Positions 3,180 through 49,800 of a stretch of 64,000 nt of DNA are shown piece after piece; the stretch's first letter is position 1, and each line of letters starts with the position of its first letter. The stretch comes from an uncultured Acidobacteriota bacterium (GTDB lineage Bacteria; Acidobacteriota; Terriglobia; Acidiferrales; UBA7541). The notes under the pieces were generated by a model. It was given only the letters and a program-made list of their open reading frames with translations, did no database searches and had not been told where the DNA came from. A program made the translations under genes and the position numbers. Where the stretch lies: contig CAVUBX010000003.1 in the NCBI GenBank assembly GCA_963739935.1, forward strand, positions 100,807 through 164,806, read 5' to 3'.

Positions 3180-4226
3180 ATGAGCGAGACAAGCGTAGAC
3201 GTGTCTGCCTACGCGGCTCTCTTCGGCAAAGACCTTCCCCAGCCCGAGCAGTTCAACTACGAAGTCACACGCGATACGATTCGTCATTTTGCCTACTGTA
3301 TCCCTGACTACAATGCACTTTATCTGGATGACGAATATGCGGCCAGTGCTCGCTGGCGTGGCATCATTGCGCCACCCGGCTATCTTTACGCTCACGGGTC
3401 GCCCGCCTGGCTTGGAAAACTGCCGGGCATAAAAGATTCTTCCGGCAACGAAATGGAAGGCAGCGACAACGCCACCGAAGCCTGGGAATTTTTTCGCCCG
3501 GTGCGCCCAGGCGATACCATTCTGTCCCATGGCAAGATCGCAGGGGCGGAGCCGAAGAACTCCCGCAAACTGGGAGACGCCGTTCTCGTCAACGAAGAAA
3601 TGCGCTTCACCAACCAAAAGGGCGAGATTGTTGCTCGATTGAATTCGTATACGTTTCGCTTCGACGCCAAACGTGTTACGGACGCCGGGACGATGGCGCA
3701 GAGCTACCCTCCCATGCCGCCCGGGCAATTCACGCGAAACGTTCCTACGGCACCGGCTCTACCAGGCACGTTCCCGACTCCCACTCGGCGACGCGACGCG
3801 CCACGATATTTCGAGGACATCCGAGACGGCGAACAGCTCCCGCCATGGGAACTGGGGCCGTTAATGGCTTTCGACATGGGCCGCTTTAACGCCGTGACCC
3901 TTGGAACAGGATTCGATCGGATTGGCCGCACGCAACATATTCCCGACGCTTTTGCGCCCGGCGTTCTGCGCATCCCATGGTTCGGCGCGATGCTCACACG
4001 TTGGGCAGGGCCGAACGCGTTTGTAACAAAAATCGCCCAGCGCAACGAGGACTGGGTGTTGGTTGGCTTCAAAGTGATCTGCAGTGGCCGCGTGACACGC
4101 AAATCCATCGTCGATGGTCGTTTCCTTGTGGATGTCGACATCGCCTGCCACAGTGAGCTTGGATTTCGCACCAATAGCGGAACAGCGCAACTGGAATTCG
4201 AAAGCCGGGAAAGGGCAGGAGCGTGA
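3180..4226 (+). CDS. double hotdog-fold MaoC/FAS1-like (R)-specific enoyl-CoA hydratase/dehydratase
   Basis: Lies in ORF 3147..4226 with an internal ATG at 3180. It is about 350 aa with two hotdog-like halves. The operon context includes a CoA ligase and a crotonase. The assignment is motif-level only. Confidence 0.65.
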   Translation: MSETSVDVSAYAALFGKDLPQPEQFNYEVTRDTIRHFAYCIPDYNALYLDDEYAASARWRGIIAPPGYLYAHGSPAWLGKLPGIKDSSGNEMEGSDNATEAWEFFRPVRPGDTILSHGKIAGAEPKNSRKLGDAVLVNEEMRFTNQKGEIVARLNSYTFRFDAKRVTDAGTMAQSYPPMPPGQFTRNVPTAPALPGTFPTPTRRRDAPRYFEDIRDGEQLPPWELGPLMAFDMGRFNAVTLGTGFDRIGRTQHIPDAFAPGVLRIPWFGAMLTRWAGPNAFVTKIAQRNEDWVLVGFKVICSGRVTRKSIVDGRFLVDVDIACHSELGFRTNSGTAQLEFESRERAGA

Positions 4227-4377
4227 ACAGCGACCTCGGCTCGCGAGAACGAAGGAATCTCACCAAATTTCAGCTCTCGGCCGCTCACCACTTTCCCGCA
4301 AGTGCCGAAGTTCATGGAGCCTTGACCCCTTGACCTCTTCTTGCGCAAATCCTGGCGCTAACCCAGCCACGTCCGCC

Positions 4378-6558
4378 GTGGGTGAAAACGCGATCCAGCG
4401 CCTGAGCCGCAAAGGATGGGAAGCGATCTCCAACCCGCGTCGAATTGCTTTGATAGGCGCCAGCGGACGCGAGAGCAGCGTTAGCTTCACCAGCCGATTC
4501 CTGCAGACCAACAAGGAACTTGGATTTGGCGGCGAAATTTATCTGATCAATCCCAGCCGCTCCGAAATCATGGGCCGAAAATGCTGGCCGAGTATTGCTG
4601 CGCTGCCCGAACCACCCGATATCGTTGCCATCAATCTTCCCGATGCGAAGGTCCTGCCGGCCGTCGAGGAGGCCATCGCTCACGGAGCCGGAGCGTTAAT
4701 AATCCATGCCGGCGGCTTTCTTGAGCGTGGTACGGCGGGCGCAGAGCGGCAAAAAGAGCTTCAGCGGCTGTGCACGGAAGCGGGCATTCCGGCTCTCGGT
4801 CCCAATTGCCTGGGTTTTCTGAGCTTCACGAATCGCGCATCGATTTCAAGTTTCAAGATTGCCGCGGGCAGCGCGGCGGGTTCGATTGCCGCGATCAGCC
4901 AAAGTGGATCGGTGGCCTCGCTGCTGCAAGGCATCGCCGGCCGCCACGGATTGTCTTTTTTGGCCTCCACTGGGAACGAGGCTGTGACAACGGCTGAAGA
5001 TCTCATCAGCTATGCCATCGAAGATCCCGCCACGCGCCTGATCGTGGCCTTCGTCGAAGGATTTCGCAAACCGAAAGAATTGTTTAGCCTCTCTGAGCGC
5101 GCGCAAGCAGCCGGAAAGCCAGTAATTCTGCTTAAAGCGGGGCTGACCCAGGAGGGCAGCGCCGTATCTCGCGGACATACCGGCGCGATCGCTGGATCGG
5201 GCGCGGTTTACCGGCAAGCTCTGCGGCAAGCAAATTTCATAGTCGTCGAAGATTTCGATGAGCTGGCGCAGACCGTGGAGCTGATCGCCTCGTGGCGAGT
5301 GCCTCCGAAATCATTTCGCGTGGGTATGCTGGGCACTTCAGGTGGAGAACTTAGCACCATCACGGATCAGTGTGTTGCGCACGGCCTGAAGTTGCCGGCA
5401 CTCGCGTCGCACACACTTACGGCGCTTCAATCTGTACTTCATCTTCCCAGCGACGTGTTTCCGCGCAATCCAGTCGACGTCGGAATCGGCTTTAGCACTC
5501 CTGGCAGCTATCAGGACCGCATGCGCGCGGCCATCCACACCGTTGCTGCCGATCCTTCTGTTGATATTGTCGCCGTGCTCCAGGGATTCAATCGCGACAG
5601 TCCCGACATTGCTTACTCGCTGAACCGTGAGATATTGGGCGCAACCGCACAAGAGTCGACTTTAATAGGGAAACCCACCTTGGTAGTGGCAACCCGAGCG
5701 GGATTCGCTGACGAAGAAGTTTTGGCGGAGGTGCAAGCAGCCAATATTCCGGCGCTTCAGGGTAGTCGCGAAGCTTTGCGCGCTTTGGGCCACTTTGAGG
5801 ATTACTCGCAGCGTCTCGTACGAAGCAAAACGCCTTCTCTCCCTTGGCCGCAACCGTCCGGCGGCATCTCCGCTCTTCTAAAAAATAAGGACGTAGTTGG
5901 GCAGGTGGAGTTGTTCGACTATTTGGCGGAAAATGGGTTAGCCACTGCGACGATGCGCCGCGTGGGAAGCAAGACGGAAGCTGAACAGGCCGCTCGCGAG
6001 CTGGGTCCGCCTGTAGTGATGAAGATCGATACGGCGCGCGTGGTGCACAAGAGCGACATTGGCGGCGTGGCGTTAGATGTAACGCCGGAGAATGCCGCGC
6101 ACACGTACGAAAAGCTTCTCAATTGTCTCAATCCGCCGCTGGGCTCTTTCCCCGGCGAAGGGATCGTGGCAGCGAAACAAGTCGAAAGCGGTCTCGAAGT
6201 TTACATTGGGGCGAAGCAGGACGAGAGCTTCGGCTGCGTAGTGGTTTTTGGGCTGGGAGGGCGATTGCTCGAGCTTCTCAATCGAAATACGATGCTAGTC
6301 GTGCCTTTTGACCAGTCCGACGCGCTGGAAGCTATCGAGCGCAGCGGTGTTCATCCGTTCCTCAACGGTTTCCGCGGCGGCCCCGTAGCTGATTTTGCGG
6401 AACTGGCCAGAATAATGGTTCGCGTCGGGCAAATCGCGGCCTCCATCGGCGATCGTCTCGAGGTCCTCGATCTCAATCCGGTGATCGTGAATGCGCGCTA
6501 TCCAGGCGGCATCATCGCGGACGCCCGCCTTCTGTTGCTTCCGGAGCCTCAACCATGA
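4378..6558 (+). CDS. ADP-forming acyl-CoA synthetase (fused CoA-binding, succinyl-CoA-synthetase-like and ATP-grasp domains)
   Basis: Lies in ORF 4114..6558. Has a CoA-binding N-terminus (RRIALIGASGRES), a GHTGAIAGS phosphohistidine-loop-like motif and a C-terminal ATP-grasp (VVMKIDTARVVHKSDIGGV). A GTG start at 4378 was chosen because the upstream part of the ORF overlaps the previous gene. The start is uncertain. Confidence 0.8.
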   Translation: MGENAIQRLSRKGWEAISNPRRIALIGASGRESSVSFTSRFLQTNKELGFGGEIYLINPSRSEIMGRKCWPSIAALPEPPDIVAINLPDAKVLPAVEEAIAHGAGALIIHAGGFLERGTAGAERQKELQRLCTEAGIPALGPNCLGFLSFTNRASISSFKIAAGSAAGSIAAISQSGSVASLLQGIAGRHGLSFLASTGNEAVTTAEDLISYAIEDPATRLIVAFVEGFRKPKELFSLSERAQAAGKPVILLKAGLTQEGSAVSRGHTGAIAGSGAVYRQALRQANFIVVEDFDELAQTVELIASWRVPPKSFRVGMLGTSGGELSTITDQCVAHGLKLPALASHTLTALQSVLHLPSDVFPRNPVDVGIGFSTPGSYQDRMRAAIHTVAADPSVDIVAVLQGFNRDSPDIAYSLNREILGATAQESTLIGKPTLVVATRAGFADEEVLAEVQAANIPALQGSREALRALGHFEDYSQRLVRSKTPSLPWPQPSGGISALLKNKDVVGQVELFDYLAENGLATATMRRVGSKTEAEQAARELGPPVVMKIDTARVVHKSDIGGVALDVTPENAAHTYEKLLNCLNPPLGSFPGEGIVAAKQVESGLEVYIGAKQDESFGCVVVFGLGGRLLELLNRNTMLVVPFDQSDALEAIERSGVHPFLNGFRGGPVADFAELARIMVRVGQIAASIGDRLEVLDLNPVIVNARYPGGIIADARLLLLPEPQP

Positions 6559-15758: not shown

Positions 15759-17405
15759 ATGCCTCGTTTGAAAAAATCGGAAGCGAAGCACGTCCGTCCG
15801 CGCCCTTCGCAGCAGTCCAATCCGGCTTCCTCTTCTTCGCCTCTGAACGGACGCGAGAAAAGCGAGCTGTTGCAGGGCCTTTTCAACAACCTTGAGGTCG
15901 GGATCGCCCATGTAATGCCTTCCGGTGAGATCCTTTATGCAAACGCTCGTTTTACTTCTGTACTAGGCATCCCCGCAAAAGCGAATGTGGCCGGCCGCAA
16001 TCTTAGCGATTTCATCGCGCCTCATAGCTGGGAAACGCTCCAAAGCGCCTTGCGCGAAGCCGTTCAAGGCCCGGTGGTCGGCGAGCTCCAATTATGTTCC
16101 CTGTCTGACAGACCTCACACCGTCCGCCTCTCGCTCAGCCTCCAGCAGGTGAATAAGCATAGTGTCATCCGCATCGTGGCCGACGAAGTCACCGAACTCG
16201 TCGAAGCGAACGTGCGGTTGCGGGAGACGGAAACCACCCTCCGCGCTCTTTCCGCCCGTATCCTGCAGATTCAGGATCAGGAACGCCGTAAGATGGCCCG
16301 CGACCTTCACGACACTACCGGGCAGGAACTCGCGGTGCTGGTCATGTCCCTTCGCCACCTGTCGGAAAGTCTCGATCGTCCCGGCCTCGACGTGCGCAAA
16401 GCTTTGGCGGATGCCGCCGAGCTCGCCAACAAGGTGAACGACGAAATTCGCACCTTTTCCTATGTTCTGCACCCGCCGCTTCTCGACCAGCTCGGTCTGG
16501 CTTCCGCCTTAAAGTGGTATGTTGAAGGTTTCTCCGCGCGCAGCAACATCGAAGTGAAGCTGGTGATTCCGGAAAGTCTCAATCGCTTCTCGCCCGAAAA
16601 AGAGACCGCTCTTTTCCGTGTGGTGCAGGAAGGGCTCACCAACGTCTTGCGCCATTCCGGCAGCAAGAGAGCAAAGATCGTTGTTTGCACCTCCGCTGAC
16701 GAAGTCGAGGTCACCGTCATCGACGAAGGCAAGGGCCTTTCCTCCACGCAGGTCGAGCAATTCGCTTCAGGCGCTTCACCGAAGGGCGTGGGTGTCGGCA
16801 TCGCCGGTTTGCGTGAACGCATGCACCAGCTCGGCGGCACTGTGCACATATGCTCCCAGCGCGTCGGCACGGTTCTGAAAGCCATCCTTCCTCTGGACGA
16901 ATCCGAAGCGGATTTGCCCGTTTTGGCTGTGGATTCGGAAACTCCGGTCGAAGAACAAGCGCACGCGCCGCAATCCGTTGCTCACGTTCATGCCAACGGC
17001 CGCAAACGCATTCTCATCGTCGACGATCACGAAGTCATGCGTCGCGGCATCCGCGCGCTTCTCGAGAATTACACCGATCTGGAAATTTGTGGCGAAGCAG
17101 GGAACGGCTCAGAGGCTATTCAAAAGGCCTCCCAGCTCGATCCCGACCTCATCATTCTCGATCTGAACATGCCGGGTTCTGGTGGGCTTTCTGCCGCGAA
17201 TCAATTACTACGGGATGGTTCACGCGCCCGCATCCTGGTGTTCACCACTCATTCTTTCCCGGGCATGGAGCGCGTGCTGCGCTCCGCTGGATGCAAAGGT
17301 TTTGTTTCCAAGGTCCATGCCGAGCGCGATCTGCTCCGCGGCGTGCGCGCCGTGCTCGCAGGCGACGAATTTTACGCCGCCGCCACCCGCGCCCACTCCG
17401 CCTGA
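15759..17405 (+). CDS. hybrid sensor histidine kinase (PAS - HisKA_3 - HATPase_c - REC)
   Basis: Has an H-box LHDTTGQEL (NarX/DegS-type HisKA_3), an N/G-box region (QEGLTNVLRH, DEGKG, GVGIAGLRER), and a C-terminal receiver ILIVDDHEVMRRG...DLIILDLNMPG. Confidence 0.9.
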   Translation: MPRLKKSEAKHVRPRPSQQSNPASSSSPLNGREKSELLQGLFNNLEVGIAHVMPSGEILYANARFTSVLGIPAKANVAGRNLSDFIAPHSWETLQSALREAVQGPVVGELQLCSLSDRPHTVRLSLSLQQVNKHSVIRIVADEVTELVEANVRLRETETTLRALSARILQIQDQERRKMARDLHDTTGQELAVLVMSLRHLSESLDRPGLDVRKALADAAELANKVNDEIRTFSYVLHPPLLDQLGLASALKWYVEGFSARSNIEVKLVIPESLNRFSPEKETALFRVVQEGLTNVLRHSGSKRAKIVVCTSADEVEVTVIDEGKGLSSTQVEQFASGASPKGVGVGIAGLRERMHQLGGTVHICSQRVGTVLKAILPLDESEADLPVLAVDSETPVEEQAHAPQSVAHVHANGRKRILIVDDHEVMRRGIRALLENYTDLEICGEAGNGSEAIQKASQLDPDLIILDLNMPGSGGLSAANQLLRDGSRARILVFTTHSFPGMERVLRSAGCKGFVSKVHAERDLLRGVRAVLAGDEFYAAATRAHSA

Positions 17406-17430
17406 AATCGCTACGCCCACCTTGTACGCC

Positions 17431-17604
17431 TGTCATCCGAAGCACAACCGGCGTCACACTCTTTTTTAATCTGTCATCCCGAGCGAAGCCGCTTTCGCGA
17501 CCCTGTAAGGGTCGCGCTGGCGCAGTCGAGGGATCTGCATTTTCTTTGTTCTTGTTTTCTTCGTCATTCCGAGCGCGTTTCTTGCGCGAAGAATCCCTCT
17601 TCGC
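17431..17604 (+). repeat. intergenic hairpin repeat family, locus 1 (degenerate copy 17431-17468, full copy 17472-17544, short copy 17563-17604)
   Basis: Copies start with (T)GTCATCCCGAGCG and end with CGAGGGATCTGCATTTT or GAAGAATCCCTCTTCGC. An internal stem GCGACCC-TGTAA-GGGTCGC is present. Confidence 0.85.
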
Positions 17605-17634
17605 CTTTTCCCCTGAATACCTGAAAATCCATCC

Positions 17635-18204
17635 ATGGAAATCTCCGCCTGGAATCACCGTTACCGCACCGGCGACCGCGCCGCCGAGGACCTCGAACCT
17701 TCTCCGAATCCGCTGCTCGGCGAAACCGCGGCCAATCTTCCTCCCGGCAAAGCCTTGGACCTCGCTTGCGGTACCGGACGCAACGCTGTCTGGCTCGCCG
17801 AGCGCGGCTGGCAGGTCACCGCTGTCGATGGCGCCTCCGCCGCCATCGACTTGCTTCACCAGCGCGCCGCCGCCCGCGCGGTTTCGGTCGAAACGCACGT
17901 CGCCGATCTCGAAAAGAATGAATTTTGCATCGAGCCAGCCGCGTGGAATTTCATCGCCATGTGCTTCTACTTACAGGTTTCGCTCTTCGAGTCTTCCAAG
18001 TGGGGACTAAAGCCAGGGGGAATCGTGCTCGTCATCGTGCACATTACCGCGCCCGGCGAAGAACCGACCGAGCACCGCTTGCGCCCCGGCGAACTCAAAA
18101 ATTATTTCCGCGATTTCGAAATTCTCCATTACCGCGAAGGTGCGCCCAACGATCCCGCGCACAAACGCCTCTGCTCCGAACTCGTCGCGCGCCGCCCCAC
18201 CTAG
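17635..18204 (+). CDS. class I SAM-dependent methyltransferase (TehB-like)
   Basis: Has SAM motif I LDLACGTGRNAVWLAERGW and is about 190 aa. Confidence 0.8.
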   Translation: MEISAWNHRYRTGDRAAEDLEPSPNPLLGETAANLPPGKALDLACGTGRNAVWLAERGWQVTAVDGASAAIDLLHQRAAARAVSVETHVADLEKNEFCIEPAAWNFIAMCFYLQVSLFESSKWGLKPGGIVLVIVHITAPGEEPTEHRLRPGELKNYFRDFEILHYREGAPNDPAHKRLCSELVARRPT

Positions 18205-18356
18205 CATCTCTTCGGAGCAAACCGTTATGTTTTGCTAGCCTTCGGCTGACCTGGTCACGTCTCATCCCCAGCGGAGTCGCTTGTTTCCGGCCTTGCCCAA
18301 GTTAAGATGGTGTCTCGAGCGCGGTAATTGTCCTCTCCGGCAAAAATAAAGCCACC

Positions 18357-18558
18357 TGTCATCCCGAGCGAGCGTAGCGAACGACCGCAGGTCGCTCGCG
18401 CAGCGACGAGGGATCTCTCTTAGCCTTCGCGTCTTTCCCGGTTTTTTAGCGAGGAAACTTTCTACTTATCCGCGAATTAATTCACCTGTCATCCCGAGCG
18501 GAGCCGCCTTCGCGACCCGTTAAGGGTCGCGTTGGCGCAGTCGAGGGATCTGCATTTG
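18357..18558 (+). repeat. intergenic hairpin repeat family, locus 2 (copies 18357-18422 and 18487-18558)
   Basis: The termini match those of locus 1. Copy 18487 is nearly identical to copy 17472, with loop GTTAA instead of TGTAA. Confidence 0.85.
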
Positions 18559-18631
18559 TTTTTCTTCTCACCACATTACTCCCGGCATCCCTGGCAACCA
18601 TTCGCCTTTTCTAGCCACTCGCCACTCGCCA

Positions 18632-19207
18632 CTAGACACTGCTTTTCCTCATCCGGTTCCAGTCGATCCTCCACCGTCCTCGCGGCATCTTGATCCACAC
18701 CAGCTTCCGCACCGGCGTCCCGCGCGCATGGTGATACAGCACCGCCGCCCGCTGGTAAAACCCTCGCGTGTGTGGCGACCCAACGTACGCAAAACTCTTG
18801 CAGTCCAGGTGATGGCAAAACTCGTGGCATAGCGTGCTGAAAAATGTCCCGTAAGATGTGACCTGCTTGCGAACCGCCGTGCGCATCCACACCCGAATCA
18901 CCAGCGTCTCCGGGTGGTAATCGCCGAAAAGTTCCGACGACCAGCCGCCTTCGCGCACGCGCAACGGCCGCGCCGACAAAACGCGCAGCTCCGGCCTTTT
19001 CACCCGGTAGAAATCCGCGGCCACCGCTATAAAATCGTTGCACGCGTAGAGCACTGCTGCGGGCTTGCCGCCCTGCATCGCCGATTCAATCGCGCTCGCG
19101 CGCGTTCGCAGCCGGTCGTCGGCTGGCACCGGCAGGTCCACGTGCTGATCGCTCGCCTGGTACTCGCCCAGCCGCGACGCTTGCCGCGGTGGAATGTCTG
19201 TGACCAT
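18632..19207 (-). CDS. hypothetical HExxH zinc-metallopeptidase-like protein
   Basis: ORF of 191 aa with a single HEFCHH motif preceded by a hydrophobic helix (TFFSTLCHEFCHHLD). No other family signature was recognised. Confidence 0.5.
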   Translation of the reverse strand: MVTDIPPRQASRLGEYQASDQHVDLPVPADDRLRTRASAIESAMQGGKPAAVLYACNDFIAVAADFYRVKRPELRVLSARPLRVREGGWSSELFGDYHPETLVIRVWMRTAVRKQVTSYGTFFSTLCHEFCHHLDCKSFAYVGSPHTRGFYQRAAVLYHHARGTPVRKLVWIKMPRGRWRIDWNRMRKSSV

Positions 19208-21538: not shown

Positions 21539-21612
21539 TGTCATCCCGAAGCGAGCCGCGCCCGGTGAGGGCGCACGGAAAATGTTCAGCGAGTCGAGGG
21601 ATCTCTCTTCGG
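21539..21612 (+). repeat. intergenic hairpin repeat family, locus 3
   Basis: Reads TGTCATCCCGAAGCGAGCC-GCGCCC GGTGA GGGCGC-...GTCGAGGGATCTCTCTTCGG. Confidence 0.8.
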
Positions 21613-21641
21613 TTTTTTCCGGTATCTGTAACTGCTGGGAA

Positions 21642-24136: not shown

Positions 24137-24309
24137 TGTCATCCTGAGAGGCTGTGACTTTTTCGATTTTGCCCGAAAACCGGCACTGAAAAGAATCGAG
24201 TTGCGCGATGAGAATCGCGTTTCTCGGAATAAAATCACACCCTCTGAGCGACGCGGGTTTCGCGGCCCGGTGAGGGCCGCGCAAGCGAGGTCGAGGGATC
24301 TCTCTTCGA
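24137..24309 (+). repeat. intergenic hairpin repeat family, locus 4 (copy split by about 90 bp of internal sequence)
   Basis: The 5-prime end TGTCATCCTGAGAGG and the 3-prime half CCCTCTGAGCGACGCGGGTTTC-GCGGCCC GGTGA GGGCCGC-...GTCGAGGGATCTCTCTTCG are separated by unrelated sequence that contains a CGCGAT-GAGA-ATCGCG hairpin. Confidence 0.7.
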
Positions 24310-24390: not shown

Positions 24391-24429
24391 AAAAAAACGA
24401 GCCTTCCCGCCAATGGGAAGGCTCGTTTT
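24391..24429. terminator. bidirectional rho-independent terminator between convergent genes
   Basis: Reads AAAAAAA-CGAGCCTTCCC-GCCAAT-GGGAAGGCTCG-TTTT. It is an 11-bp GC-rich stem flanked by an A-run and a T-run. Confidence 0.75.
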
Positions 24430-33663: not shown

Positions 33664-34007
33664 TGTCATTCCGAGCGAGCTCCCTGGCGACCCGGTTAGG
33701 GGCGCGGTGGACAATCCGCGATCCGATCAGGATCGCGCAGCGAGTCGAAGAATCTCTCTTCTGTTTTGAAGTGATGTTCGTTTTACGTTGTCATCCCGAG
33801 CGGAGCGGCTTTGGAGACCCGGTTAGGGGCGCGTAGCGTAGTCGAGGGATCTGCATTTTCTTTTGCATTGTCATCCCGAGCGAGCGAAGCGACGAGGGAT
33901 CTGCTTTTTCTTTGCTATGATTTTCGCCGTCATTCCGGGCCCAGCCGACGACCCGATTAGGGCCGGAGTCCTGAGCGGAGCAACGCGAGCGAAGGAGCTC
34001 TCCTCGT
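33664..34007 (+). repeat. intergenic hairpin repeat family, locus 5: array of four copies (33664-33763, 33789-33860, 33869-33910, 33929-34007)
   Basis: Each copy starts (T)GTCAT(C/T)CCG(A/G)G and ends CGAGGGATCTGC or GAAGAATCTCTCTTC. Inner stems contain CCCGGTTAGGGG. Confidence 0.85.
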
Positions 34008-34654: not shown

Positions 34655-35175
34655 TGTCATCTCGAGCGAGCCGCACCCGGTTAGGGGCGCGGTAGCGAAG
34701 AATCCCTCTTCGCTTTTGAAGTTTGCTGTTTCGCTGTCATCCTGAGCCGCACCCGGTTAGGCCGCAGAAAAAAGGGCGATCCGGATTTAGCCCTTCGTCC
34801 AATCGAAGGCTCCGCCGCTGATCCTCACAAAATCACCCTTGTGCCTCTCATGATCTTCCCGGGTGCCGCATCGCTTTGCGCCCTTTGCAATGCGTGCGTG
34901 GCTTTGCCTAACTACATGCTCGCTTTTATCCGAGCACATACTTCAGCGAGTCATTCTGAGCGCAGCGAAGAATCTCTCTTCGCTTTTGAATTTGCTGTTT
35001 GGTTTTTCAGTCGCTGTTGATTTTCGTTTGTCATCCCGAGCGAGCCGCGCCCGGTTAGGGCGTAGAAAAAAGGACGAGAGATCTCTCCTGGTTTTTGACT
35101 TTGCTGTTCGGTTTTTCCAGCGGAGTTCAGCGGCCCCTCAGGGCCGCTGAACGCAGTCGAGGGACCTGCATTTTC
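34655..35175 (+). repeat. intergenic hairpin repeat family, locus 6: array of five to six copies (34655-34713, 34735-34784, 34950-34983, 35029-35090, 35118-35175) with a recurring TTTTGAA-TTTGCTGTT linker
   Basis: Termini and inner hairpins match the other loci. The last unit has a 12-bp stem GTTCAGCGGCCC-CTCA-GGGCCGCTGAAC. Confidence 0.85.
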
Positions 35176-47995: not shown

Positions 47996-48120
47996 TTGGT
48001 GAGTAGCTTATTTGCTCGATTGGTCGCGATTTGAAGTGGTGTAGCCTGCGCGAAGGCCGTGAGAAAGGAATTCATCTGCGCGCTATGGCCCAGACCTGTC
48101 TTTGATGAGTTTTGGCGATC
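47996..48120 (-). pseudogene. fragment of a LuxR-type response-regulator gene (copy 1 of a ~125-bp direct repeat)
   Basis: The minus-strand reading ...VWAIAR/AQMNSFLTAFAQATPLQIATNRANKLLTKCEND parallels the fragment at 49651-49773 and then breaks off. Confidence 0.4.
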
Positions 48121-49475: not shown

Positions 49476-49800
49476 TCAGGGATGTGAATTTCCGAGCCAA
49501 TACAGAACCAGCTTGACTAGAAGTCCCCAGTTTTTGTAGATCCTAAACAGGTAGTTGCTAACCGTGTGTTCGGTGAGGCCAAGTTTTTGTGATACCTCGC
49601 GGTTGCTGAAACCCTGCACCACATGCTTGGCGACATCATTTTCACGTTTCGTGAGCAACTTATTTGCCCGAATTGGTCGCGATTTGAAGTGGCGCGACCT
49701 GTGCGAAAGCCGCGAGAAGGGAATTCAGCTGCTCGCTATTGGCCCAAACCTATCCCTGATGAGTTTTGACGATCCTTCGATTGGTCCGATTCGGGCGGCT
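49476..49800 (-). pseudogene. LuxR/NarL-type response regulator, C-terminal remnant with in-frame stops and frameshifts
   Basis: Has the GerE HTH LTKRENDVAKHVVQGFSNREVSQKLGLTEHTVSNYLFRIYK. The upstream part reads ...RRIVKTHQG*VWANSEQLNSLLAAFAQVAPLQIATNSGK* with TAG and TAA interruptions. The receiver domain is missing. Confidence 0.65.

Follow-up and report, generated by a model that had tools for sequence, protein, structure and literature searches.

Two described systems of short tagged repeats stand closest to the element treated here. In Neisseria, the palindromic repeat NTS is bound and cut as single-stranded DNA (ssDNA) by SsnA, a 94-amino acid, single-domain GIY-YIG nuclease for which neither RNA nor double-stranded DNA nor the reverse strand is a substrate (Chenal et al. 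2025, Nat Commun 16:2388, PMC11893778). The three bases upstream of the NTS palindrome govern cutting, the C just after it governs binding, and ssn genes are typically bracketed by their own motifs (PMC11893778). The second system is the CGTC-tagged superfamily of repetitive extragenic palindromes (REPs), with the families CGTC-1 to -4, in which the tag is CGTC, or often TGTC, the stems begin with A and T, and a short tail follows (Di Nocera, De Gregorio & Rocco 2013, BMC Genomics 14:522, PMC3733652). These repeats occur mostly as "HH" dimers with the tags outside, have no link to a transposase, and include dRS3 of Neisseria and RPE-4 and RPE-6 of Rickettsia; the published families have 8–9 bp stems, 4–5 nt loops and a CCA-like tail, and come from five host phyla (PMC3733652). 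Here, we describe a family of intergenic hairpin repeats in a 64,000-nt stretch of DNA from an uncultured Acidobacteriota bacterium (assembly GCA_963739935.1, contig CAVUBX010000003.1, positions 100,807–164,806 of the forward strand), called the window below, with seven copies in the span 17431–18558. The repeats seem to constitute an undescribed family that belongs to a known kind, the CGTC-tagged REP or Ssn-related motif (SRM). Most likely, they are hairpin elements at the DNA level that belong to the CGTC/TGTC-tagged REP type: non-autonomous copies of a hairpin that flanks genes of an Ssn-type nuclease and is probably recognized by it, with the nuclease presumably encoded elsewhere in the genome.

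Reading the window for the pattern (T)GTCAT-YCY-GAGCG...CGA-RGR-ATCT identified about 19 copies or fragments, each on the + strand and spread over six loci between genes. The 5' module, GTCATCCCGAGCG, had 17 matches with up to two mismatches against 3.0 expected, a number reached in none of 100 shuffled windows. Those within the six loci, all on the + strand, lie at 17473, 17563, 18261, 18358, 18488, 24138, 33665, 33790, 33870, 34656, 34736, 34950 and 35030, and allowing three mismatches added 17432, 21540 and 33929. The 3' module, GTCGAGGGATCT, occupies ten + strand sites (17525, 18405, 18540, 21593, 24290, 33744, 33841, 33891, 35073 and 35156), whose spacing fits that of the 5' modules. A covariance model built from unrelated copies gave eight matches in the window at E ≤ 0.001, scoring 28–48 bits and all on the + strand; with its filters off, a setting that penalizes long tips and under-scores full copies that the default filters recover, the single – strand match in the window was noise (12 bits, E 0.46). 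An earlier note on this DNA had counted at least 16 copies in six intergenic loci, all on the + strand and each locus just after the stop codon of a + strand gene. The module scan, the covariance model and our reading bear out that observation, and a + strand stop precedes each locus (17405, 18204, 21404, 24079, 33649 and 34624). The inner stems quoted there are present as written, and the peptides CHPERSEGS and VILSAAKNLSS, which it had taken for products of spurious open reading frames (ORFs), are direct translations of copies.

Alignment of 209–298 copies from many genomes gave a common architecture consisting, in order, of (T/C)GTC, AT-YCY, GA, GC, a tip, G(T)C, GA, RGR-AT and CT. The stem has five Watson–Crick pairs, then a G.A/A.G step, then GC/GC pairs, and is closed by a GNA loop or by a tip hairpin. 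In the smallest copies the tip is a 3-nt GNA, giving GCGNAGC (e.g., window 34949–34975); common copies have tips of 12 or 14 nt that repeat a GAGC unit, and long copies have an arbitrary Watson–Crick hairpin of 10 to ~60 nt as their tip. The inner stem of the window copies is a lineage-specific tip with the loop CCC-(G/T)GTNA-GGG, found only inside copies. At the G/A steps, G stands opposite A on the top strand, and C/T oppositions result on the other strand. Unusual stability is a known property of tandem G.A pairs and of GNA loops with a C-G closing pair, as in d(GCGAAGC).

The earlier note's proposal of a structured family with compensatory changes was borne out. The outer stem occurs in the complementary variants TCCT/AGGA (14 copies), TTCC/GGAA (9), TTCT/AGAA (7), TCTC/GAGA (7), TTTC/GAAA (2), TGCT/AGCA (1) and TCTT/AAGA (1), and the 11 mismatched combinations are each singletons. 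Among 150 model-aligned copies, 95% of cells pair, compared with 18–60% in slid controls, and 68 cells carry double-sided changes, compared with 12.1 in shuffles, none of 500 of which reached 68; as the alignment was made by fitting to the model, and CCC/GGG had served to ascertain many of the copies, the variants weigh more than the percentage. The first two stem pairs are nearly invariant (A-U in 141 of 143 copies, U-A in 143 of 143). Conservation ends sharply, with T (76%) or C (17%) at position –1, T (92%) after the terminal ATC, and none beyond. The GTC tag and the C 3' of the stem were fixed by the search pattern, so that their being shared gives no independent support. Tandem arrays of the 5' half alone, (GTCATCCCGAGCG + NAG + 3–10 nt) repeated 2–4 times and ending in one 3' half, were also seen (L047 7105–7186, L061 14–86, L053, L098, L101, L117 1235–1305 and L125, where L numbers denote loci from other genomes) and look like repeated partial duplication at the hairpin.

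The family was compared with the two described systems. As in the Ssn/SRM system, the repeat is an oriented hairpin whose stem starts with AT and has (C/T)GTC directly on its 5' side and C directly on its 3' side; both systems have many intergenic copies and a very wide distribution, and in both a GIY-YIG-only gene of ~90–130 codons lies between two copies with their tags outward. Unlike those motifs, the present repeat lacks a perfect 8-bp palindrome as its core: the five Watson–Crick pairs are followed by the G.A/A.G step, GC/GC, and a GNA loop or a 10–60 nt tip. Acidobacteriota, Gemmatimonadota and the candidate phyla radiation (CPR) are not named as hosts in the available text of PMC11893778, and cutting, which was demonstrated for the Neisseria NTS, is for the present repeat an analogy. 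With the CGTC-tagged REPs, the family shares the tag, the A-T/T-A start of the stem, a short unpaired tail, tags-outward doublets and intergenic copies, and it differs by its internal G.A mismatches, its 3-nt loop or long tips and its CT tail. Neither the repeat strings nor their peptide translations occur in the supplement of PMC3733652, and a full-text literature search with DNA strings and peptide translations returned nothing relevant. Canonical CGTC-1/NTS-like repeats (YGTC ATTCCCGC GAAG GCGGGAAT CCAG and relatives) were seen in the same contigs as members of the family, including a CPR bin and a viral contig (L070 near 3484, L115 near 7473, L047 near 7055 and L001 near 9205).

The exact pattern GTCATCCCGAGCG-N(11–41)-CGAGGGATCT, for which we estimate ~0.5 chance matches in 596 Gb, was found in at least 118 genome loci from ~13 phyla, as judged by record titles, and in 15 viral contigs (IMG/VR). 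Among the matches listed, Acidobacteriota were the most numerous, and Gemmatimonadota and Planctomycetota were also present. Other hosts included Verrucomicrobiota and relatives (Kiritimatiellae, Victivallales, Chthoniobacter), Omnitrophota, CPR/Patescibacteria (Uhr-, Roizman- and Moranbacteria), gut and rumen Clostridia, Bacteroidales, Rhodothermales, Alpha- and Gammaproteobacteria (Rickettsiales, Francisellaceae), Oligoflexales, Armatimonadia, Anaerolineae and one actinomycete.

Five of the 118 genome loci (L018, L054, L074, L089 and L124) contain an ORF of 90–101 codons, and a decayed one is present in L035; all six had been chosen solely for carrying the repeat. By motif scan and a local hidden Markov model run over all six-frame ORFs, each of these ORFs has a + copy upstream and a – copy downstream. 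Their sole Pfam match is GIY-YIG (PF01541), with E values of 1e-11 to 1e-17, and NCBIfam has no specific model for them; homologues are annotated as "GIY-YIG nuclease family protein" or "putative endonuclease". An AlphaFold model of the nuclease (pLDDT 80) is closest to the GIY-YIG domains of 1zg2, Slx1 and UvrC-N. The family is large: all 8000 of the scored candidates in a homologue search passed E ≤ 1e-5, and a representative library holds 23,543 clusters at E ≤ 1e-3 and 9,003 at 1e-10.

The linkage was also found from the protein side. In six of six independent genomic contexts of homologues picked by their sequence alone, the gene was bracketed by outward-facing TGTCATCCCGAGCG...CGAGGGA(T/C)CT hairpins. 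The hairpin-ssn-hairpin unit adjoins a UvrC_M-domain gene in L217–219. It lies directly between the E1-alpha and E1-beta genes of a 2-oxoacid dehydrogenase operon in L220–221, where there are two tandem units, 91% identical, and in L223; in L222 it is upstream of the E1-beta gene, with a glycoside hydrolase gene upstream of the unit instead of E1-alpha (L220–L223, ~3400–4480). The unit stands between pheS and pheT in L224–227 (~1900–2400) and between two phosphodiesterase genes in L228 (~1970–2360). The neighbours on either side are functionally coupled in the pheS/pheT, E1-alpha/E1-beta and phosphodiesterase cases, and related bins differ in having one unit or two in tandem. The flanking hairpins in Terriglobales end in GGGACCT, not GGGATCT.

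On the analogy of SsnA, the following scheme may be proposed. When single-stranded, the top strand would fold into a hairpin with the stem AT-YCY/RGR-AT, the G.A/A.G mismatches, GC/GC, and the GNA loop or variable tip hairpin. The nuclease would read the folded stem, the unpaired 5' GTC and the 3' C, and would cut a few bases upstream. The hairpin-ssn-hairpin unit would be the minimal selfish element, and solo hairpins its non-autonomous progeny, accumulating in intergenic DNA. By the same analogy, the organism that carries the window presumably encodes such a nuclease, which would bind and cut the copies and might account for their spread; its gene, elsewhere in the genome, would be bracketed by outward-facing TGTCATYCYGAGCG hairpins.

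Doublets are a prominent feature of the family. Neighbouring copies within 120 nt of each other are arranged as + then –, with the GTC tags outward, 55 times and as – then + only 15 times, and inverted doublets were found in every gene context. An explanation of the doublets as paired 3' untranslated region (UTR) elements of convergent genes was rejected for that reason. Target-site duplications were not detected: direct repeats of at least 5 nt in the flanks numbered 8, compared with 5.5 in permutations. Hairpins with an unpaired 5' tag, inverted doublets and no target-site duplications would equally be expected of classical REPs or REPINs mobilized by a REP-associated tyrosine transposase (RAYT) or another Y1 HUH transposase of the IS200/IS605 type, and the G.A pairs adjoining the stem have counterparts in Pseudomonas REPs. 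A Y1 class with atypical hairpins is known in Acidobacteria (PMC6006769). The REP/REPIN–RAYT systems (Nunvar 2010; Bertels & Rainey 2011; Ton-Hoang 2012) resemble the present one further in their clusters, like those of BIMEs (bacterial interspersed mosaic elements), in having a single-copy gene for the enzyme, flanked by the repeats that belong to it, and in being thought to be processed as ssDNA. However, their tag is GT[AG]G rather than YGTC and their enzyme is a HUH Y1 protein rather than a GIY-YIG nuclease; RAYT-linked REPs are lineage-specific, whereas the termini here are near-identical across phyla, and the sequence is absent from published RAYT/REP tables. A motif-level search of ~1 Mb of loci found no small HUH-Y1-like ORF near the copies, and ten copy-bracketed genes classified by Pfam were housekeeping genes, whereas the GIY-YIG gene is bracketed repeatedly. 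Mobilization by a RAYT or Y1 enzyme is therefore very improbable.

The same clustering could suggest that the copies are structural DNA sites recruited by the host, for supercoiling, nucleoid proteins or recombination, without any dedicated enzyme, or that they are miniature inverted-repeat transposable elements (MITEs) decayed from DDE transposons. Copies are intergenic and form mosaic, BIME-like arrays, and some seem to be retained at a shared locus among several Acidobacteriaceae bins. Against both possibilities, there are no long terminal inverted repeats, only the 5-bp stem being inverted, and no target-site duplications; the flanks show strict conservation and are asymmetric, an unchanged set of 23 specified bases turns up in different phyla and in viral contigs, and copies are tightly linked to one nuclease family. 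We consider this explanation extremely improbable. Sites of the attC, CRISPR, DNA-uptake sequence and oriT-nick types were also dropped, as they do not fit in sequence, spacing or distribution.

The leading idea of the earlier note was that the copies act at the RNA level: co-transcribed with the gene upstream, they would be 3'-UTR stabilizers, intrinsic terminators or small structured RNAs. The window is consistent with this, since its six loci all follow + strand genes and its copies are all on the + strand; in addition, T-rich sequence follows the copies, and REPs in general affect mRNA 3' ends, as discussed in PMC3733652. A subset of copies is extended on the 3' side, and the extension yields a hairpin plus T run resembling a terminator, e.g., at 34964–34984. 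In the 133 loci outside the window, however, copies between co-directional genes were sense in 74 cases and antisense in 69, and in Acidobacteriota alone the numbers were 24 and 17. Among tandem spacers, 28 had sense copies only, 24 antisense copies only, and 31 both. Convergent spacers contained 35 copies and divergent spacers 23, and the share of spacers with copies was 26% for tandem, 28% for convergent and 17% for divergent ones. The copies lack the form of a canonical hairpin-plus-T-run terminator; the T run is set apart from the stem, and, with the exception of the accessory 3' hairpin at 34964, the elements were not flagged as terminators. Rfam gave no match at the gathering score in the whole window, and only noise at E ≤ 10 in 17380–18640, so that the search the earlier note had proposed yielded no curated RNA family. 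Doublets in all gene contexts likewise argue against the RNA explanation, SsnA, the characterized partner of related repeats, does not bind RNA (PMC11893778), and near-identical termini in ~13 phyla are hard to square with a host-specific RNA role.

An RNA-level function is thus improbable, and a terminator or 3'-UTR role is not supported as a property of the family; of the roles listed in the earlier note, "REP/MITE-like" came closest. Its description of an oriented, structured element stands for the structure, through the covariation, and fails for the orientation, since both orientations are equally frequent relative to genes, an outcome that the note itself had named as refuting it. Individual copies may nevertheless have secondary effects on transcripts, such as through the accessory 3' hairpin at 34964–34984. 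The extension that forms it, ATC(T/C)CTCTTCG(C)TTTTGAA, occurs in some copies (also at 17585–17614, 21593–21616, 33744–33773 and 34694–34723; repeat families D4 and D8), and through pairing of its TCTTCG arm with CGAAGA in the 3' module it can form the alternative hairpin, followed by a T run, flagged as a terminator at 34964–34984.

Orientation did correlate with base composition. Among net-oriented loci, the top strand of the repeat lay on the C-rich strand in 62–66 and on the other in 21–25. This link held when 10 to 800 nt were masked around every copy (p ~1e-4 to 3e-6), and for the component of the skew that is independent of gene orientation it held in 34 of 44 loci. By group, the ratios were 35:6 in Acidobacteriota, 8:2 in Gemmatimonadota, 9:2 in viral contigs and 10:15 in the mixed remainder. 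The strand of the repeat that lies preferentially on the C-rich strand of the locus is the G-rich, hairpin-forming one (window 8000–40000; L016–L133). Between 8 and 40 kb of the window, the + strand is C-rich, with a skew of –0.02 to –0.14 per 8-kb bin, under + and – strand genes alike. The uniform + orientation in the window is most simply explained by this GC-skew strand bias, which accounts for it better than the upstream genes do.

As a rule, the leading strand is G-rich. Placement on the C-rich strand would therefore put the hairpin-forming strand on the leading-strand template, to the extent that an 8-kb skew, a noisy proxy, reflects the direction of replication. This suggests a replication-strand rule for the orientation of the repeat. 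IS200/IS605 elements have the opposite strand preference, a further point against the RAYT/Y1 explanation. A strand bias is not discussed, and the word "lagging" does not occur, in the available text of the Ssn paper (PMC11893778).

The individual copies in the window, all on the + strand, range from intact to decayed, and several of the ORFs upstream of their loci are real genes by Pfam, encoding a hybrid histidine kinase, a TehB-like methyltransferase, a UbiD protein, an NHL-repeat protein and a PBP-family protein. At the first locus, A1 (17431–17445) is a 5'-half remnant (TGTCATCCGAAGCA) with three mismatches to the 5' module; A2 (17472–17536) is a full copy with both modules, a long tip containing the inner hairpin GCGACCC-TGTAA-GGGTCGC, and a covariance model score of 43 bits; and A3 (17562–17596) has a 5' module, a short tip and the outer stem ATTC/GAAT, scoring 21 bits. 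The second locus begins with B1 (18260–18280), a weak, degenerate 5' module with two mismatches (CTCATCCCCAGCG), followed by B2 (18357–18416), a full copy with both modules (38 bits). B2b (18430–18461) is a degenerate copy, CGTCTTTCCCGG...GCGAGGAAACT, with the outer stem TTTCC/GGAAA, and B3 (18487–18551) a full copy with both modules and the inner hairpin GCGACCC-GTTAA-GGGTCGC (41.6 bits). Three tandem GCCACTC heptamers lie a little beyond B3 (18614–18634). The third locus has one full copy, C1 (21539–21604), with the inner hairpin GCGCCC-GGTGA-GGGCGC (37.9 bits). At the fourth, D1 (24137–24150) is a 5'-half remnant matching the 5' module (TGTCATCCTGAGAG), and D2 (24236–24301) combines a decayed 5' module, the inner hairpin GCGGCCC-GGTGA-GGGCCGC and an intact 3' module (repeat search family D1).

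The other copies lie in the last two loci. E1 (33664–33755) is a long copy with module matches and an imperfect outer stem, ATTCC/AGAAT (36 bits), and E2 (33789–33852) a full copy with both modules (40.9 bits). E3 (33869–33902), near-minimal, with both modules and the 10-nt tip AGCGAAGCGA, has the best score in the window (48.4 bits). E4 (33928–34000) is degenerate, with three mismatches in the 5' module and 16 bits at 33969–33996. Among the F copies, F1 (34655–34706) matches the 5' module and has an inner hairpin and a decayed outer stem, and F2 (34735–34775) consists of a matching 5' half and an inner hairpin. F3 (34949–34975), GTCATTCTGAGCG-CAG-CGAAGAATCT, is a minimal copy with the 3-nt GNA loop that folds in the predicted shape (25 bits). 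F4 (35029–35084) has a 5'-module match and an inner hairpin (28.4 bits), and F5 (35118–35167) has an inner hairpin and the 3' module GTCGAGGGACCT, a variant that also flanks ssn genes in Terriglobales loci.

Relatives of these loci showed that copies turn over. The nearest named relative of the PBP-family protein, ~80% identical, is in a Candidatus Acidiferrales bin; homologues of its gene (78–81% identity) are not syntenic with the window. Two metagenome relatives of the methyltransferase locus are syntenic, L137 (84% protein identity) and L138 (71%). In L137, copy A2 is kept, with mutated modules and an intact inner hairpin; A1 is absent, an extra copy lies between A2 and A3, and A3 has a long inner hairpin in place of the short tip seen in the window. 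Downstream of the methyltransferase gene there are three to four copies in the window, one different copy in L137 and none in the 97-nt spacer of L138. These differences at orthologous positions show that copies are gained, lost and remodelled at the species scale. A GCCACTCGCGACTCGCCACT stretch similar to the GCCACTC heptamers of the window precedes the extra copy in L137; such stretches may belong to a mosaic, BIME-like array as its spacer motif. A copy with a near-identical 20-nt tip, (G/C)AGCCGTTCTTCAGGCG(A/G)AG, and similar flanks recurs in several bins of Acidobacteriaceae and Sulfotelmatobacter (L024, L068, L078, L081, L087, L097, L099 and L112), one of them with a compensatory change (GCT...AGC). 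This may be an orthologous, long-retained copy.

Several points weigh against the proposal that the repeats are non-autonomous copies of an Ssn-linked hairpin. The window itself contains no ssn-like ORF by hmmsearch at E ≤ 1, which is unsurprising, as the gene is expected at one or few copies per genome. The ORFs in other genomes were classed by Pfam PF01541 and by their GIY-YIG fold, so that they are candidate members of the Ssn clade. Only one of 298 copies fits the published SRM pattern HGTCWYN(0-2)YYVSBRHN(0-5)WNVSBRGN(0-2)RNCYNB, as does, in the window, only the degenerate copy B2b at 18430; the family therefore falls outside what the motif search of Chenal et al. would have counted. Minimal copies fold at –2 to –3 kcal/mol, no better than shuffles, though in the predicted shape, with nearest-neighbour DNA parameters that do not capture the stability of G.A pairs and GNA loops. 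The predicted DNA folding energies of the top and bottom strands are alike. Since the top strand shows no enrichment in G.T pairs, an argument for strand asymmetry from wobble pairs was dropped. The loci were ascertained with the exact CCC/GGG pattern, and the orientation statistics for the window and the 133 loci rest on a crude, self-trained codon-likelihood gene caller that misses some genes. Finally, most records are metagenome bins that may be contaminated, and single host assignments may be wrong; contamination is unlikely as a general explanation, given that the flanks are AT-rich in contigs from CPR and that the habitats are varied.

Two further features of the window were noted. A strong classical intrinsic terminator on the – strand (24394–24429), with a 15-bp stem and a T run, lies behind a gene for a 1226-aa BadF/BcrA-type protein, in the same convergent spacer as + oriented copies of the repeat. 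Two direct repeats of ~100 nt, at 48019–48120 and 49672–49774 (families D9 and D20), are 84–86% identical, lie 1.65 kb from each other and have no relation to the hairpins.

A broader interpretation is tentative, and we think it rather doubtful as a whole. The repeats might belong to a distinct, nearly pan-bacterial selfish system, reaching into CPR and phage contigs, in which the hairpin-ssn-hairpin unit inserts between coupled genes such as pheS and pheT or E1-alpha and E1-beta, spreads horizontally and seeds hundreds of solo hairpins; placement on the C-rich strand would then be a way to avoid self-cleavage where replication exposes ssDNA. If this were true, the system would follow a replication-strand rule opposite to that of IS200/IS605.

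With the repeats taken as probable copies of an Ssn-linked hairpin, what had been an anonymous repeat becomes a testable pair of a DNA hairpin and a nuclease that is a candidate for site-specific action on ssDNA. Interest in Ssn enzymes stems from their use as tools for ssDNA, and a further pair of hairpin and enzyme is a potential new specificity; in this case the core is non-canonical and the tip accepts inserts of arbitrary sequence. There is also a value for annotation, as the copies yield spurious ORFs (CHPERSEGS, VILSxAKNL) in many phyla and are covered neither by Rfam nor by the SRM search motif as published. The skew-linked strand bias, if confirmed on complete genomes, would bear on the role of Ssn nucleases outside the naturally competent Neisseria.

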